Shown: positions 39,400-54,777, counted from the stretch's first letter. The stretch is 64,000 nt of DNA from a bacterium (GCA_965207065.1 OZ242260.1:1472001-1536000); one strand, 5' to 3'. Numbers and translations are program-made. Notes: generated by a model not told the origin, from the sequence alone.

Positions 39400-39428
39400 G
39401 AGTTACTGTCAAATGTTGTGTATGGCCG

Positions 39429-39692
39429 TATGTGGACGGCCCCGTAAATGCAAACATGTTGTTTGAACGATTCAGGGTCTGTGGTCAGGTGCAGTCGTAT
39501 GTCCGACCTCTTGGTGCGGCATATCTCTCACCGCGGGCCCGTATGGAGATGCGCGGATCGGGTCCGAATCGTCCTGGCGAGCTCAAGGGCTCTCGGCCAT
39601 ACCCCGGTTTACCCGACCCTGTCTCATTGACCATTTACCCTTACCCGTCCTCCGACCTGCTCACATTCCTGGATAATCCGTTTGTCTGCCGC
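39429..39692 (-). ncRNA. Predicted bridge/seek RNA region of IS110 copy 1
   Basis: Long 3' non-coding end conserved with 52160-52430; segments at 39594-39602 and 39570-39576 match the flanking DNA. Confidence 0.75.
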
Positions 39693-40504
39693 TCAGGCGA
39701 CCGGCGCCGGTTCCTGGTAGACTTCTTTCTTCGTCATCAGCGCCCATGCGATGCGCGCCATTCGATTCGCCAGCGCCACCGCGACCAGCATTCGTGGCTT
39801 GCGCGCCAGCATCCGGGCCAGCCATGAGCCCGCCGGCGCGCCGCGCCGGACCGCGCTGCGCACCACCGTCATAGCACCTATGTTCAAGAGCCGCCTGATG
39901 TCGCGCTGTCCCATCTTCGACACTTTGCCCAGTCGGGACTTGCCTCCGGTCGAGTGCTGTCTGGGCACGAGGCCGAGCCAGGCGGAGAAGTCCCGTCCGC
40001 GTTTGAAGCTCTCCAAAGGCGGCGCGAAGGCCAGTATCGCCGACGCGGTGATCGGACCGATTCCCGGGATGCTCATCAGACGCCTCGCCTCCGCATCCGC
40101 GTAAGCGCCCGCGTGGAGTTGCCTCTCCAACTCCCTGATCTTCTCGTTGAGTTCGGCAATTTGATCGAGAAGAACCCCGCCCAACTCGCGGACCACCGTC
40201 GGCAGCTCCGTAACCGGGTCTCCAAGAGCCGCCGCCAGGCGAGAGGTATTCACTAGTCCCTGCGGAGCGATGACCCCGAACTCCGCGAAGTGACCGCGCA
40301 ACGCATTGACAGTCTGCGTGCGCTGGCGAACCAGGAGATCGCGCGTGCGGAACATCATCCCCTGGGCCTGCTGCGTTTCGCTCTTCACCGCCACGAAGCG
40401 CATGGTCGGGCGCGAGGCGGCCTCGCAGATCGCCTCCGCGTCCGCCGCGTCGTTCTTCTGACGCTTGACCAAAAGGGTCACACACTGCCCGTTATCATGA
40501 TGGG

Positions 40505-48132: not shown

Positions 48133-48322
48133 GGTGGCGCATCTCCTTGTGCTGAATGACCGGGCTTCTGACAACCCTATTTCAGCAGGATGCGCCGCCT
48201 TCTTCAATTCAGCCCATACACAAGTTCTGAGAGTAACTCCAGTATATACGATGATTTTTGCAAAAGGAAAAATTGGTGATTGGTCGTAATTGCATAAGGC
48301 ATATACTCACTTGACTAACCCA

Positions 48323-49291
48323 CTATCTATCAGGCCATATTTCAGCATCCTCGCCCGGTTCTTGATTTGGCCTGAAATCCAGCAGGTAGGTTTCGGGGTC
48401 GATTTTCGAGAACGTAACATCTGTCCGGCCATACTCGATGAGGTGATGCCTCGTCACATACACGCCAGAACCAACACGTAGACGCGCCCTCAAGTAAGCA
48501 CCGAGCAAACTGTTGTCCTGTGTAGTGTGCAATCCCTTTCCGGCATCTTGAGCGCGAACACATATGAAGCTGTCGCCATCATCCGTAAGAACCGTGAATT
48601 GCTCAAACCTGTCAGGGAAGAATCCACTACGCCCCACGCTTGCGGGAATGTTGATGTAGGCTTGGTTCGGGTTTCTCCCAGACCTTTGCCCCCAGTTAAT
48701 GCCCGATCTGGTAGGCGTCTCACCTTCTCTCGAAAGAAGAGTGAGGGTAACGCTTTCAAGTGGGCTTCCCGTCTCAAAACCCTTCCGGCTTTGCAGCAAG
48801 GTGATCTGAGTGTCGATATGGGGCTGAATGCAGTCCGATGCGTTCCTGAGAATGAGGTTGTGGAAGTCGTTTGCATCGCATGAATCGGCTGGGGACATGA
48901 CCTCTATTTGCGCCCTTCCGAATCCCGTCATAGTATAGTTGGCGGAGCCGCAGAAAGCCTTTATCGGCTCTCCTTTGGCATTCAACCACACATACGATTT
49001 AGCATGAACTGGATTGCCTCGAACCACGTATCGGCAAATGAAGTCCGTATCCCAGGACGGATGATCCATCATTTTGCAGAATGCGGAATGCTGGGCTTCC
49101 TCTATCCCGTGTTGTATCGTCATGCCGATTATGAGTTCTATCGAGATGTTGAGGTCTAGTTCCTTCAGGTGCTCCATATGCCTGTCGGCCATATTCGCGG
49201 TAGCGAATCCGCTGACAATACGCAGGCGCCCTCCGTTCACGTCATACGCGGGCGATAGCAGGACTTCACGGAAGAGGTCTTCGTGGATCAT
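48323..49291 (-). CDS. PLD-family type II restriction endonuclease (NgoFVII-like)
   Basis: IVSGFA, HAKSY...GSANYT...E; C-terminal SGINWGQR..RNPNQAYI domain. Confidence 0.82.
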   Translation of the reverse strand: MIHEDLFREVLLSPAYDVNGGRLRIVSGFATANMADRHMEHLKELDLNISIELIIGMTIQHGIEEAQHSAFCKMMDHPSWDTDFICRYVVRGNPVHAKSYVWLNAKGEPIKAFCGSANYTMTGFGRAQIEVMSPADSCDANDFHNLILRNASDCIQPHIDTQITLLQSRKGFETGSPLESVTLTLLSREGETPTRSGINWGQRSGRNPNQAYINIPASVGRSGFFPDRFEQFTVLTDDGDSFICVRAQDAGKGLHTTQDNSLLGAYLRARLRVGSGVYVTRHHLIEYGRTDVTFSKIDPETYLLDFRPNQEPGEDAEIWPDR

Positions 49292-50373
49292 ATTGTGAGT
49301 TCATAAGCAGGGACGTCATGCTTGACGAGTGAATTCAGGACGGCGCGATAAACGACCTCCGCGCCCTTCGGTGGAACGGCCATGCCGATTTGCTTTCGCA
49401 CGGATTCTTTCCCGCCCTCAAAGACAAAGCTGTCGGGAAATGTTTGGAGTCTCGCCCTTTCTCTATTCGTCAAGGCGCGATTTTCTTCCCAATGATATAG
49501 ATGCGTTCCACCGCCACCGGAACCAGTAACCGTATAGCTTGGCGCATCCGGCTTGAGTCTTCTGTAAATTTGGCTGATGGTTGCGCCGCTCTTGAGGTTC
49601 AATTTTAGATGCTTGGGCAAATCAGCCGTGAAGGCGTTCTCTCCCGGCTTGATATGTTTCAACCTCTCGACAACATTTCCAGACTGGTTTGTGCGCTCGT
49701 TGTTGGTCGCATCATCCGGTATGTCGCTCAATGCTTCTTTAGCCGTATTGAAATTATCCATGTGTGTGGGCGCAGGATGCTCGAAAGAATCAATGCCCAG
49801 GTCTTTGCGAAAACCGACCACGAACAATCTGTGGCGCGCTTGAGGCACTCCGTATTCCTCTAGGCGATAGGTGTGCGGGAAAATCGCATATCCGGCTTTT
49901 CGCAGGGAAGACAGGATGATGGCAAAGTCTTTATTATCACCGCTCGACTTGATGCCGCTCACATTCTCGGCTACGAAAAATGCAGGTTTCTTCGCCTTGA
50001 GCGCACGCACTCCCCAGATGTAAAGGCCACCATGCTGGCCAGATATACCCCGTCGCTCTCCTATTACGCTGAAATCATTGCATGGGAACCCGAAGGCCAG
50101 CCCGTCAATATCCGCCAGTTCCTTGAAGTCCAAGTCCTTCACATCCCCGCACATGACACCGCCTTCCGGCAACGGGATATTATTTTCGAGCGTCTTGCAA
50201 GCATCCGCGTCCCTGTCGTTTACCCACACGTGAACGAAACCATGCCCGCCCACCTTCGCGTTGTGCGCGCCCAGCGTCATGCCTCCTGCACCAGCAAATA
50301 ATTCACCTATCCGATAGGTCTTGTGATCCGGAGATGGAGCCATAGCGAGCGCAAGCTGATTGTCGAAGCTCAT
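49288..50373 (-). CDS. DNA (cytosine-5) methyltransferase
   Basis: ELFAGAGG, GFPCNDFS, ENV, YGVPQARHR, RERARLQTFP and QIGMAVP motifs. Confidence 0.95.
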   Translation of the reverse strand: MSFDNQLALAMAPSPDHKTYRIGELFAGAGGMTLGAHNAKVGGHGFVHVWVNDRDADACKTLENNIPLPEGGVMCGDVKDLDFKELADIDGLAFGFPCNDFSVIGERRGISGQHGGLYIWGVRALKAKKPAFFVAENVSGIKSSGDNKDFAIILSSLRKAGYAIFPHTYRLEEYGVPQARHRLFVVGFRKDLGIDSFEHPAPTHMDNFNTAKEALSDIPDDATNNERTNQSGNVVERLKHIKPGENAFTADLPKHLKLNLKSGATISQIYRRLKPDAPSYTVTGSGGGGTHLYHWEENRALTNRERARLQTFPDSFVFEGGKESVRKQIGMAVPPKGAEVVYRAVLNSLVKHDVPAYELTI

Positions 50374-51296
50374 CCGGTAAGCTCCCGCCAAGAGAGTTTC
50401 CCGCAGGTGATGCGGCTGATGATGTTTTCACATCGGATGCCTGAGCTTCGCTCTTTCCTCATGTTGAATCGAGCGGAGTATTCGTCCACATAGCGATGCA
50501 AATGCTTCGCGCTCATCTTGTAATAGACGCCGATATAACCGCGCTTGAGCAAGCTCCAAAAGCTTTCCACGCCATTCGTATGCGCCATGCCCTTCACATA
50601 CTGGCCTACGCGGTGGTTCACCATGACATGATGATAGAGACGGCCTAGATGCCGATAGGAGAGAAACTCATCCGTTGAAATGACCGACCCGGATGCGACC
50701 GACTTGAGGACTTCCCTTGCTATGGTGCGCTTCTTGGTGTTCTCGACTGGACGGGCCACAATATCTCCGCCTCGTTGTAACATCGCCAGGACGGGTTTCT
50801 TCGTTTTTAGACTGCGCCCCTTGGTTCCTCCGGTGCGCTTGTGTTTATGCTTGTTGGCCTCTCGACCCCCGATATAACTTTCATCGACCTCAATCGTTCC
50901 CGAGAGCTTGGGAGCCTTTTCGGTTGCGCCAAAGGCTTTTCTGATTCTGTGTTCCATGAACCATGCCGTATTGTATGCAACGCCAAGCTCACGCTGCAAC
51001 TGCGTAGCGGGAATGCCTCTGCGATTCGAGGACATGAGCCATATCGCCACGATCCATTTTCGGAGAGGAACTGGAGAATCCTGAAATATCGTGCCGATTC
51101 TCACAGTGAATTGATCACGGCAATCAGCGCACTTATACCGCTTCCCATCGCTGAAAGCATAGACCTTGCCCGTGCTTCCACACTTAGGGCAATACATCCC
51201 ATGCCGCCACCTGATTTGCGCGATGTACTTGTGAGCCGCTTCCTCGTTCGGTATGTTTTCGTATAGCTGATTCAGGCTGTCAAAACTTATTTCCAT
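50370..51296 (-). CDS. IS1595-family transposase
   Basis: CPKCG/CADC zinc ribbon, EVDESYIGG, STDEF, VNH and HTNGVESFWS motifs. Confidence 0.93.
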   Translation of the reverse strand: MEISFDSLNQLYENIPNEEAAHKYIAQIRWRHGMYCPKCGSTGKVYAFSDGKRYKCADCRDQFTVRIGTIFQDSPVPLRKWIVAIWLMSSNRRGIPATQLQRELGVAYNTAWFMEHRIRKAFGATEKAPKLSGTIEVDESYIGGREANKHKHKRTGGTKGRSLKTKKPVLAMLQRGGDIVARPVENTKKRTIAREVLKSVASGSVISTDEFLSYRHLGRLYHHVMVNHRVGQYVKGMAHTNGVESFWSLLKRGYIGVYYKMSAKHLHRYVDEYSARFNMRKERSSGIRCENIISRITCGKLSWRELTG

Positions 51297-51554
51297 GACC
51301 TTCCCTCCCTATGATGATAACAATATACATCATTTAATTGGGTTAGTCAAGTGAGTATATGCCTTGCATAAAGGTACACTCTACGTTACGTCTGTTCGGT
51401 ATTTCTTTTTTGCTCCTTATTCCCTATGTCCAAATCTTCGATCCACACGGAACTAACTGCGCCGTCAATATTATTATGTTCAGCTTACCACGGAATGATC
51501 TCGCAGCTGACTAGATACTGAGATAATCACTATCATTGGCACCAGAAGGCTGCG

Positions 51555-52432
51555 GTGCCATCTGGCGGAGTTCGGGCTCATCGCTCCAAAAGGGGCCGGT
51601 TCATCTCACATGGTTGCTGTTGGCAGTGAAAGGTCTGGACTCGGGTCTGCCGGAGGCGGTGCACGAACTGGGCGGGGTTCTGCTCGCGTAGATTGCCAGC
51701 CTGAAGGAGAAGATACAGGAGTTGGAGGGGCAACTGCGCGCGAGCGCGCGCGAAGACGAGGAGGCGAGACACCTGATGAACATCCCGGGGGTCGGGTCGC
51801 TCTGCGCGTCGGTGATACAGGCCTTCGCGCCGCCGATGGAAAGCTTCCGACACGGGAGGGATTTCTCCGCCTAGATCGGCCTCGTGCCCCGACAACACTC
51901 CACGGGCGGCAAAACGCGGGTGGGCAGAATATCAAAGATGGGCCAGCGCGACATCAGGCGGCTTTTGATCATAGGGGCCATGGCGGTAGTGGGTTGGGCG
52001 GTCCGGCGCGGCGCGCCGGCGGGTTCATGGTTGGCCCGGATGTTGGCGCGCAAACCTCTTATGCTGGTCGCGGTGGCGCTGGCGAATCGAATGGCGCGCA
52101 TCGCTTGGGTGTTGATGACGAACAGGGAATTCCACAAGGAGCCTGTGCCGGTCATCTGAGCGGCAGGCGAGTGAATATAGCCGGGAGGAATGTAAGCAGG
52201 TCGGAGGACGGGTAAGGGAAAATGGTCGACGAGACGGGATCGGGAAAACCAGGGTACATTCGAGAGTTAACAAGCTCGCGAGGCCGATTCGGACCCGGTC
52301 CGCGCATCTCCATACGGGCCCGCGGTAAGAGTTAAACGCCGCAAACGAGAGGTCGGACATACGACTGCACCTGACCACGGACCCTGAATCGTTGAAATAA
52401 CATGCTTGTATTCACGGGGTCGTCCACATACG
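51555..52432 (+). mobile_element. IS110/IS1111-family remnant (5'-truncated, internal stops) with intact 3' non-coding end
   Basis: GLVPRQHSTGGK...VALANRMARI; end CGTCCACATA|CG as in copy 1. Confidence 0.85.
52160..52430 (+). ncRNA. Predicted bridge/seek RNA region of IS110 copy 2
   Basis: Homologous to 39429-39692; guide GTACATTCG (52254-52262) is the reverse complement of the flank 52431-52439. Confidence 0.75.
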
Positions 52433-52618
52433 AATGTACGACAGAGCCTGACCGTATTGCGACGAACCCTCCGAAGAAAACGCTTGCATTCTAGTGGGCG
52501 TCCATGTTCATAAATATACGATTGGGTGAACGCGACCTCCCATCGACAGCGACTCGTTTGCTTTTGTTGCCAAGTCAGCGCATGCCACTTAACGAGATGT
52601 ATCAGTGGGAGTGAGGAA

Positions 52619-54777
52619 ATGAACATCGCAGAACTCAAACAAATTAGCCGGACTGGACCGGTTCTCGACATAACTAATTACACAGATCATTTCATAAGGT
52701 CACTTGTTAAGTTGATCCGAAGCACGAAACGTCACGGCGTTATGTTTGAGACGGAATCGTCGACTTCCGCAGCCGCATGGCTACTGTGTATAGCGGATGC
52801 CAATGCTTTCGGAACCCTCAGCACCGACGCTCAGTTGGAATGTACATTTCCCGAGATGGCTCCAAACCAACTCCTAGGATTTCGGGGGCAGAAGGCCAAA
52901 TATGAGAGTATTGTGACTAGACTGCATCGATTATTGCGCCAGGCTAAGCCCTGGAGAGGAGGATGCCATGACCTGAAACCTCTCGTAGCGACCCAGAGGG
53001 TTCGACTCCCGCCCGGCAAAGGCGAAGCCGGCCAGCCGGAAGCGAGTCTTGCATGGCGTGCGGCAACGCCCGTCGTGAAGCGTAGACAGCAGGTGATGAA
53101 GCGGCGGGGTAAGCCTCGAAATCGGTCAATCGACGACGCCTTCATTGTTAATCGTGTGGGGGCAGCACCGGGAGCGCCGCCAATGGCGAGGCGCAACGGG
53201 TCGTCCGGGGTCGTGGGCCGGCGCAAAGTCACGGGACGGGTCGCCAGGGAACCTGGGAGATCCTGCTCTTGCCCGTGGGCAAGAACGCTGGAAAGGGGAC
53301 GGCCAGCGTGAACAATCCAGACCCCGGCCCGTCGCCGGACCTGCACGGCGGCGGGAGCGCCCCAGGGCGGACACGAACCCGGCAGGCGCCCGCGGAACCG
53401 GCTGGCCAAAACAATAAGCCGAAGGACATGCGAGGGTAGGAAGTCGTAGCGCCCTGATAGTACCGCTGAAGGCGGGGAACCGTGGCCATCGGGACCCGCT
53501 GGAGGGAAGCGGGGCGTCATCTGTACAGAACCACTGATGGGAAACGATGGAGGAAACTCTGAGTTCCACCAACACGTACACGAAACAGCAGTGGATAGCC
53601 GAACAGGCGAGGAATGCCTCGACCTGCGGACCAAGGGTGACAACCCCTTGAGCGAACCTGTCAGGTGAGGAACCGAGTGCGTCAATCGCGCACGCTCGGG
53701 TCTGCGGGGGGAGGGGCGCAGCAATGCCCCCTCCTACCCGGCCCTCAAGAAAAGCGTGTCGAGGCAGACAAAGCTTTCAGTTGGTTTCGTGCTGCAATTT
53801 CAGCTTGGCACAATACAAACTTCCGCTACCTTAATGACATGTTCGACAATGGTGGGGTTGAGCATGAGTCCGCCATGGGTGTCGCGCAACATTACCAACT
53901 CCCCACTTTTTTAGTGGACTGGACATGGAATCCTTTCGTGGCCTTGGCGTTCGCCATGTCCGATCTAAGGGATGGTGAAGAGGGCGTGGTCTTTCTTCGA
54001 GATTTTGGCGACGGAACTAACCCAACATCCGACTATAACGTTCTTTTGCCGCCGTCGTTTGCCAAGAGAGCTTGGCGTCAAAGGGCGTTCTTTTCCTGGC
54101 ATCCAGTTGCTCCTGAGGATTGGGACAATCCGGTCGTGCAGAGAATTGCAGGGGATATTCCGCGGCATAATGCAATGCCCAACAATTATTATCACATCAA
54201 ATTTCGTGCGACTGAGAGTGACATAAAATGGGCGAAACAGAGTTATGCTGGATTGATGAAGGAGGATCTGCCCGGCTTGGGTTGCTTGGCGAAATGGTGT
54301 TTAGAAGCCGCACGAAAGGGCGCGAATGGGCCTTTACATCCCAATGTTCTCTCGTTGGATGATTTCCAGAAATGGTGTAATCGTTGCAACTTGAATTTAC
54401 CTGAGTTTGTGGTGACGAATCGAGAAGTGGAAGTAACAGAGAACTTTGCTCTCATGATGGATTATATAGATGAAATGAGCGTTAGGCGTAATCCAAGTAA
54501 TGGCACAATCGGTTACTTCATTCCGAGTGTGTTAACGGCCTGTGTGGGAATGCCATGGAACAGTTGTATGAAGTATCCCGCCCGCGGACTTAAGAACCTG
54601 AATGATCCAAGAGCAGATGTTTTCTTTGACGATGATGGGCAACCCTGTATGGATCACTGGCATAAAAAGCTGAGCTATATGAAGTCGTTGGTTGACATAA
54701 GACGTATACAGAACGACGATTTTTTTCGATCAATGTTTGTAGAACGCCCGCGGGGAAAGAGGCAACAAATCGGTTAA
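52619..54777 (+). CDS. FRG-domain protein in two exons (52619-52933 and 53743-54777; 449 aa after splicing)
   Basis: GFRGQ in exon 1 and AQHYQLPTFLVDWTWNPFVALAFA in exon 2; intron removal joins HRL|PQEK in frame. Confidence 0.85.
52934..53742 (+). ncRNA. ORF-less group II intron, internal-deletion sibling of 4282-6310
   Basis: Highly similar 5' ~670 nt and 3' ~90 nt; RT ORF deleted. Confidence 0.92.

Follow-up and report, generated by a model that had tools for sequence, protein, structure and literature searches.

Element A, a dead, 5'-truncated IS1111-type element at positions 51536-52432 (+) of the window, probably carries a seek/bridge RNA programmed for the sequence GAGGC-CG-AATGTAC, and was probably inserted at the CG of that sequence by RNA-guided recombination, inside the RNA gene of a sibling element of subfamily C. 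The window is the whole stretch of DNA that was analyzed, 64,000 nucleotides in length, and was taken from positions 1472001-1536000 of a genome that consists of a single contig. For comparison we used a set of 101 genomes, made up of the window's own genome and 100 relatives.

The transposase gene of A survives as a remnant at 51536-52159 (+), which corresponds to approximately residues 140-340 of an intact 341-aa paralog. By tblastn the two were 70% identical over residues 140-340, and the gene of A showed two in-frame stops and one frameshift near 51590-51594. The domain search found the PF02371 C-terminal part kept and the N-terminal DEDD (catalytic) domain absent, while the intact paralog matched PF01548 with 50.3 bits, PF02371 with 87.5 bits and the model NF033542 ('IS110 family RNA-guided transposase') with 322 bits, the cut-off being 140. 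To the left of A lies unrelated AT-rich DNA and then an IS1595-type unit, which indicates that A was cut on its 5' side. The cut is at about 51536, in agreement with the sequence-only reading that the left junction is lost in this copy. Since that junction and the 5' part of the victim are missing, the insertion of A is visible from one side only.

Downstream of the gene remnant is a 3' non-coding region of 273 nt (52160-52432, +), the putative seek/bridge-RNA gene, which reaches the right end and is conserved across all relatives aligned. No Rfam family matched 51900-52700, even at E <= 10. The element ends at the ATA at 52430, and homology to the paralogs breaks off at 52432; the core dinucleotide CG (52431-52432, +), the predicted crossover point, is constant on both sides of the full-length paralogs c355, c1933 and c4446. 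Just inside the end is the right subterminal inverted repeat GGGGTCGTCCAC (52416-52427, +), followed by the 3-nt extension ATA. The reverse complement of this repeat, GTGGACGACCCC, is found 7 nt (CGATGGG) inside the left end of intact paralogs; in A the right copy alone survives, occupying 52416-52430 with its extension. The paralogs have subterminal inverted repeats, 11-13 bp long, whose extensions are asymmetric, 7 nt on the left and 3 nt on the right, and the same extension lengths are given for IS1111 members in PMC11187229. Insertion was site- and orientation-specific, and without duplication beyond the shared core: c355, c1933 and c4446 have the CG on both sides, and the three nests described below agree in orientation. 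By every feature that could be tested, A is a member of the IS1111 group. It had previously been labeled an IS110 element, and this holds at the level of the IS110 family, but the subgroup is IS1111 and not IS110 proper.

Seven PF02371 matches were obtained from the window's own genome by domain search. They consist of A, four copies of a family designated B, one 3'-truncated copy and one distant copy. The family B copies (full element 1376 bp) are approximately 80% identical to A and 95% identical among themselves. The best relatives of A across the 101 genomes, with four candidates scored per genome, were 82% identical, and no second copy of the A lineage was seen among them. A pattern containing both guides of A gave 0 matches in a genome contig collection.

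The non-coding region had been proposed to hold two target guides, and the strings were indeed found: GTACATTCG at 52254-52262 (+), GAGGCCG at 52280-52286 (+) and, in the right flank, CGAATGTAC at 52431-52439. Guide 1 is complementary to the top strand of the core and right target, CG-AATGTAC, and guide 2 is identical to the top strand of the left target and core, GAGGC-CG. When A was aligned with its four paralogs of about 80% identity, the differences clustered in 52254-52262 and 52280-52286. The first of these segments is, in A and in each of the four paralogs, the reverse complement of the CG plus the 7 nt that come after ...CCACATA; those 7 nt are AATGTAC in A, GCGGTAC in c355, GCCAGAC in c1933 and c4446, and GCCATAC in c1511. 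At the right junction of A the agreement with guide 1 is 9/9. The second segment is the same as the 5 nt that precede the left end, with CG added, namely CCCGC-CG in c355 and TGGGC-CG in c1933 and c4446. Sixteen parsed elements were scored for the match of this segment to the left-flank 7-mer, and it was 7/7 in seven, 6/7 in six, 5/7 in two and 4/7 in one, so that 13 of the 16 matched at 6/7 or 7/7. Because the two segments track the right and left flanks from copy to copy, we take the core to be CG and the target to have the form 5 nt-CG-7 nt. This covariation in A, the paralogs and the 16 parsed elements upholds the earlier assignment of the two segments as target guides, and on these alignments the assignment is not a chance 9-mer match. 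The loop segments are thus complementary to both target strands and covary with the flanks, as in a seekRNA or bridge RNA. Their order is also that of the IS1111 seekRNAs, in which, according to PMC11187229, the complement of the top strand lies 5' of the complement of the bottom strand and the two overlap on the target.

A consensus fold of 17 non-redundant right-end regions was produced with RNAalifold and contained 50 pairs. In this fold 96.3% of the cells were paired, compared with 23-44% when the partners were slid, and 7 pairs had a compensatory change, a modest covariation that follows from the alignment set being only moderately diverged. The predicted structure, all on the plus strand, has an outer stem (52188-97 with 52404-13), two further long-range stems, an arm 1 (52231-52310, helices 5-8), an arm 2 (52317-26 with 52338-42 and 52349-54) and a single-stranded stretch (52355-52373). 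Arm 1 is a seekRNA-like hairpin with a target-binding internal loop, guide 1 being located on the 5' side of the loop (52251-52263) and guide 2 on its 3' side (52278-52290). Its 80 nt fall within the 70-100 nt reported for the seekRNAs of IS1111 members in PMC11187229. The sequence GAGG(C/T)C makes up the 3' strand of arm 2, and the pair 141/176 is GC in 12 cases, GU in 3 and AU in 2. The homologue in A of its own predicted target is GAGGTCGGACATAC (52349-52362, +), of which GAGGTC is the 3' strand of arm 2.

Overlapping this homologue is ACATACG (52357-52363, +), which matches the right end of A, ACATA-CG. The corresponding segment of subfamily C is ATGTACG, which lies inside the 14-mer target and equals the C right end, ATGTA-CG. 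Among 25 parsed rows, the 5-nt segment was the same as the element's right-end tip in 23 (the exceptions are L028 and L031), and five variants were seen: ACATA, ATGTA, ATATA, ATGCA and ATACA. Since it covaries with the element's own right end in 23 of the 25 rows, we read the segment as the left-donor guide; a donor-binding segment that covaries with the element's own end is again a property of seekRNAs and bridge RNAs. A candidate right-donor guide, CTCCATACG, is found at 52308-52316, and both this candidate and the left end are invariant. The position predicted for the donor guide, in a multi-loop, agrees with many of the IS1111 orthologues of Durrant et al., in which the donor guide is in a multi-loop and the RNA in the right end (PMC11208160). 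The target in the victim therefore covers two features, namely the 3' strand of a conserved stem (GAGGCC) and the beginning of the single-stranded donor-guide segment; from the place of the 14-mer in the predicted fold, the crossover of A would fall between arm 2 and the donor guide of the victim. The earlier suggestion that the donor-binding part of the victim's RNA is disrupted is consistent with this placement, and with the identity of ATGTACG in the target to the victim's right end. Such a crossover would detach from the rest of the victim its right end and donor guide as well as the 3' strand of each of the three long-range stems.

What follows A on the right is the tail of the victim element, approximately 77 nt at 52433-52509 (+). 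Within this tail the left-donor guide, ATGTACG, occupies 52434-52440 and the subterminal repeat, GGGCGTCCA, 52496-52504; the tail also supplies the 3' strands of the long-range stems and has a decayed right tip. As the tip reads CCATGTTC, the end of this C tail is degenerate. A global alignment of 52354-52432 with 52431-52509 scored 16, against -10.4 +/- 4.0 with a maximum of 3 for 500 shuffles, and the A and C tails of the window are about 62% alike, so the resemblance of the flank to A's own terminal region that had been noted from the sequence is well beyond that of the shuffles. We used 52431-52640 as a query against the genome set and obtained matches in 17 of the 101 genomes, the window's own included. 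Fourteen of the 16 other matching genomes were among the 22 genomes of the same genus. The flank matches were multi-copy, ran from query position 1 to 75-98 at 80-90% identity, and had E values down to 4e-25. The sequence upstream at the matching loci showed complete elements that belong to this IS group and are 74-82% identical to B over approximately 1380 bp. The flank from 52433 to about 52509 thus matches IS1111-type right ends in sister genomes, and the proposal that it is the tail of a related right end stands.

Intact C right ends read ...GAGAGGC|CGAATGTACGAC... and end in ...GGGCGTCCATGTA-CG. The idea that 52506-52530 (CGATTGGGTGAACG...) might be a left end, as in a circle junction or tandem dimer, was rejected because intact C right ends are followed by an ordinary palindromic target with which this stretch aligns; an example of such a target after a C-type right end is locus L018, CG|CATATATGCGTGGGGTGG. 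At three loci (L016, L031 and window 52500-52525) a second decamer resembling the right tip was seen after a C-type right end, the decamers being TCCATACACA, TCCACATACA and, in the window, TCATAAATATACG. A local duplication could account for these decamers, as could an insertion for which the subterminal repeat of a further sibling was the site; at L031 the element's own guides do not match the decamer flank.

The left half of the target, GAGGC, is not seen in the window and was predicted from guide 2. Intact C copies in five sister genomes carry GAGGC directly before CGAATGTAC, so that the full 14-mer is present at the homologous place. The exact 14-mer, GAGGCCGAATGTAC, had 11 matches in 6 of the 101 genomes, compared with 1 for its reversed control. 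All 10 exact sites outside the window's own genome were in C-type right ends of the five sister genomes, from which we conclude that intact relatives do have the predicted left half; a reading of eight loci likewise sustains the prediction. The eleventh match, at 602400-602413 (+) of the own genome, is in a short, decayed, uninterrupted relic of a C-type right end. No intact C-type element was present among the PF02371 matches of the own genome. When up to 2 mismatches were allowed, the own genome had 20 hits besides the exact one where 28.8 were expected, which is within chance.

Two sister genomes, G019 and G005, contain nests in which both junctions can be read. In G019 the host element reads ...GAGGT-CG, after which a complete inner element begins with its left end, ATGGGGTGGACG...; beyond the inner right end, ...CCATGCA-CG, comes the host tail, ACATACGAATGCGCC.... 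The inner guides, GTATGTCCG and GAGGTCG, specify GAGGT-CG-GACATAC, a 14-mer identical to window 52349-52362 and present in all B copies. The transposase ORF of this inner element is intact (341 aa), and its right flank is one G short relative to the guide. The G005 host reads ...AAGGC-CG|ATGGGG..., and the right end of its inner element ...CCACATA-CG|GATACACGAATGCGCC.... Here the inner guides, GTGTATCCG and GAGGCCG, specify GAGGC-CG-GATACAC; the right flank is CG-GATACAC, the left flank is AAGGC where the guide has GAGGC and is thus one base off, and the inner gene is broken. The target in G005 is the donor region of a D-type subfamily, the right end of which is ATACA-CG. Inner and host elements are co-oriented in all three nests, that of the window included. 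None of the outcomes that the sequence-only reading had named as refuting it was observed; the two left flanks, GAGGT-CG and AAGGC-CG, lie inside IS non-coding DNA.

Over 2.2 kb, the composite in G019 is 86.6% like that in G005, and the outer flanks of their hosts are similar, so it is not certain that the two nests arose independently. They differ at three guide positions, each of which is mirrored in the nest's own flanks, and this disfavors decay after one shared insertion. Full independence of the two nests can thus be argued from their sequences, but it is not proven. The own genome has one more structure of this kind at 1429267-1429400 (-), where a degenerate A/B-like tail is joined through CG to a C-like tail in the same register (...GTCCACGTC-CG-AAAGAAC...), with an outer flank unlike that of the window. 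Such nests are uncommon: of 61 genomes, two had the right-junction pattern, the window's and G005. The left-junction 20-mer had 7 matches in the genome contig collection, one of them real (L045, with the same upstream and left-end sequence as the G019 nest) and six due to chance in coding DNA, and none of its 8 matches in a metagenome contig collection was real. A tree of the 3' half of the transposase (21 rows) placed the G019 and G005 attackers as sisters (97/96) and A in a polytomy. The grouping of the attackers as one clade is therefore unsupported, and the label needs 2 changes on the transposase tree.

In the mechanism that we propose, the RNA-transposase complex of A would bind a C-type element through both guides, guide 1 pairing with the top strand at CG-AATGTAC and guide 2 with the bottom strand at GAGGC-CG, and would exchange strands at the CG, as experiments showed for other IS1111/IS110 members. 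That RNA guidance made the insertion is suggested by analogy with ISEc11, ISKpn4 and IS621. The insertion would split the RNA gene of the victim, parting its transposase, target loop and arm 2 from its donor guide, stems and right end. Subsequently, the 5' half of A and all of the left part of the victim would have been lost, and the transposase gene of A would have decayed. Such a site might be favored for being multi-copy, neutral for the host and constrained in the victim, the constraint following from the fact that a change would need a matching change of the right end and of a structural stem. Knock-out of a competitor and a free ride on the mobility of the victim are possible side benefits. 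As had been pointed out earlier, the homologous sequence of A itself differs from the target (at 4 of 14 positions), and for this reason self-insertion of A seems unlikely. The anatomy of A would fit a lineage that parasitizes its relatives and itself escapes. Since the same boundary was struck in two sister genomes, where guide 1 of each attacker was matched to a different variant of the victim donor guide, aiming at the donor-guide boundary of siblings appears to have happened repeatedly in this IS group. The pattern nnGGn-CG-... is common to the group's ordinary targets, which suggests that the sibling site is perhaps a few mutations away from common chromosomal targets.

That last consideration can also be turned against a specific aim. 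The guides of A might have evolved for an ordinary chromosomal (REP-like) site to which the sibling tail is merely similar, and the nest would then be an off-target accident with no meaning for the lineage. Most elements of the IS group sit in palindromic, non-IS sites, the usual targets of the relatives share nnGGn-CG-(G/C)A.AT.., and the guides of one C-type copy (L023, in genome G011) specify CAGGT-CG-GACATAT, two changes from the donor-loop sequence of A and B. We nevertheless consider such an accident unlikely, because the guides of A match the C-type site at 14 of 14 positions, each of the 11 exact 14-mers of the 101 genomes belongs to a C-type right end or to a relic of such an end, and the three attackers have three different guide 1 sequences, each exact or near-exact for the variable donor guide of its own victim.

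The C-type tail might instead be a separate hitch-hiking module, or a second, alternative right end of A, comparable to MITEPpu9 and ISPpu9, where an IS110-family element is likewise directly adjoined by sequence with end-like boxes. According to PMC12288879, the module next to ISPpu9 has its own end boxes and several kinds of circle are formed. Solo partial tails occur in sister genomes (L026 and L037), and the nest at 1429k of the own genome is a second pair of A-like and C-like tails. Yet MITEPpu9 is described there with both end boxes and circles of its own (PMC12288879), whereas the tail that flanks A is a right end only: 52433-52509 has no left-end box, the tail corresponds to the last 77 nt of the right end of intact C elements, and the solo tails begin at differing query positions (22, 29 and 33), as deletion relics would. 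A module of this type is accordingly very unlikely.

Very unlikely as well is a tail-to-tail joining without target guidance, through recombination of a right end with an internal copy of the donor guide or through homologous recombination or deletion between neighbors. An event of this kind is seen at locus L052 (G011:C1:4139888-4140032), where the last ~72 nt of the right end are duplicated in tandem and joined at ATATACG|ACTGAGCC; the right end appears, from this sequence, to have undergone recombination with the DNA in which its own donor guide is encoded. This mechanism was rejected for the window as the junction register does not fit: the window junction is 7 nt upstream of the G011 register, at the CG that precedes AATGTAC, which is the position specified by the target guides. 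Moreover, a homologous crossover would not yield two complete tails from different subfamilies (the window tails are about 62% alike), and G019 and G005 have a whole inner element with its left end at a matching left junction. RNA-guided insertion of A into the sibling's RNA gene thus remains the preferred reading.

The boundary that is struck in the nests is also where the tails of related elements change. Between loci L055 and L057 the body is 97.7% alike and the tail 75%, and between the inner elements of G019 and G005 the body is 85.9% alike and the tail 67.4%; these are the two pairs relied on, with approximate tail boundaries and the breakpoint checked by eye. Differing tails on near-identical bodies, with the breakpoint at the donor guide, were seen in the pairs L055/L057 and L060/L054. 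The tail, from donor guide to right end, thus seems to behave as an exchangeable module. If a nested insertion were followed by loss of the inner tail, the attacker would be left with a new, self-consistent pair of guide and end, and tail swaps in which guide and end still match would follow from such events. It is tempting, if doubtful, to extend this to a network of RNA-guided hyperparasites among the IS1111 siblings of the genus, all striking the donor-guide boundary, with that same boundary being the crossover point for exchange of donor modules. The differing tails, and the guide 1 sequences of the three attackers, which track three victim variants, were counted as support for this network.

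Comparison with known systems places A closest to the IS1111 seekRNA elements ISEc11, ISPa11, ISKpn4 and ISPst6 (Siddiquee et al. 2024, PMC11187229). Shared with these are a DEDD transposase of ~340 aa, a long downstream non-coding region, a two-guide hairpin of ~80 nt, and subterminal inverted repeats with 7- and 3-nt extensions. Their targets are a short linear site, attC sites and REP sequences, whereas the predicted target of A lies inside the non-coding RNA gene of a sibling. Like the bridge RNA of IS621, the predicted RNA has separate target- and donor-binding parts, a shared core dinucleotide and guides for both strands; unlike IS621, in which the RNA is in the left end and has two simple internal loops, the group of A has a right-end RNA, with the donor guide in a predicted multi-loop between arm 2 and the long-range stems (for IS621, Durrant et al. 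2024, PMC11208160). Our literature search found no IS110/IS1111 element aimed at the RNA gene of another, and the supplementary tables of PMC11187229 and PMC11208160 might list one. The new point is the target, in that an element directs its guide RNA at the gene for the guide RNA of a sibling. This target sequence is one that the victim must conserve, since it has to match the victim's own end. Natural targets reported for IS110/IS1111 elements include REP sequences, attC sites, transposon ends and short chromosomal sites, and the IS621 bridge RNA is reportedly also the subject of Hiraizumi et al. 2024. Some IS1111 members insert site- and orientation-specifically into constrained sequence of other mobile elements, their victims being unrelated elements, Tn3-family transposons and integron cassettes. 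In the case of A, by contrast, the victim comes from within the IS group, and it is this sibling's guide RNA gene that is hit. If this behavior is general, programmable recombinases serve in conflicts between mobile elements, and donor specificity could be reshuffled by a natural route. It would also mean that bridge-RNA DNA has target-like and donor-like sequence that other bridge systems can strike, which bears on engineering.

Several further observations concern the paralogs and other features of the window. The family B copy c1511 is itself in the window (39427-40205, -) and is 5'-truncated; its guides specify CAGGA-CG-GCCATAC, and its right flank is CG-GCCATAC. Two family B copies, at 1933146-1934005 (L003) and 4446334-4447192 (L004) of the own genome, occupy one shared site in a larger repeat that is 86% alike over 3.3 kb, and the right flank of c355, a third copy, matches the left flank of one of these two with 80% identity. 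Family B thus also seems to be located inside a repeated element. The IS1595-type unit to the left of A spans 48296-51365 and is bounded by 27-nt inverted repeats that are 100% identical (51339-51365 and 48296-48322). It encodes, all on the minus strand, an ISXO2-like transposase (50370-51296), a C-5 cytosine methylase (49288-50391) and an NgoFVII-type restriction enzyme (48323-49291), and given that the methylase and restriction enzyme are within the repeats, we regard the unit as a transposon with restriction-modification cargo. Matches to group II intron RNAs were found on the plus strand, three to D1-D4-6 (RF02005; 4351-4568, 26272-26496 and 53003-53220, with 124-169 bits) and two Rfam matches to D1-D4-4 (RF02003; 26595-26778 and 38508-38651). 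Just upstream of the third RF02005 match, an 83-nt stretch (52928-53010) occurs at six other places in the genome with 95-99% identity.
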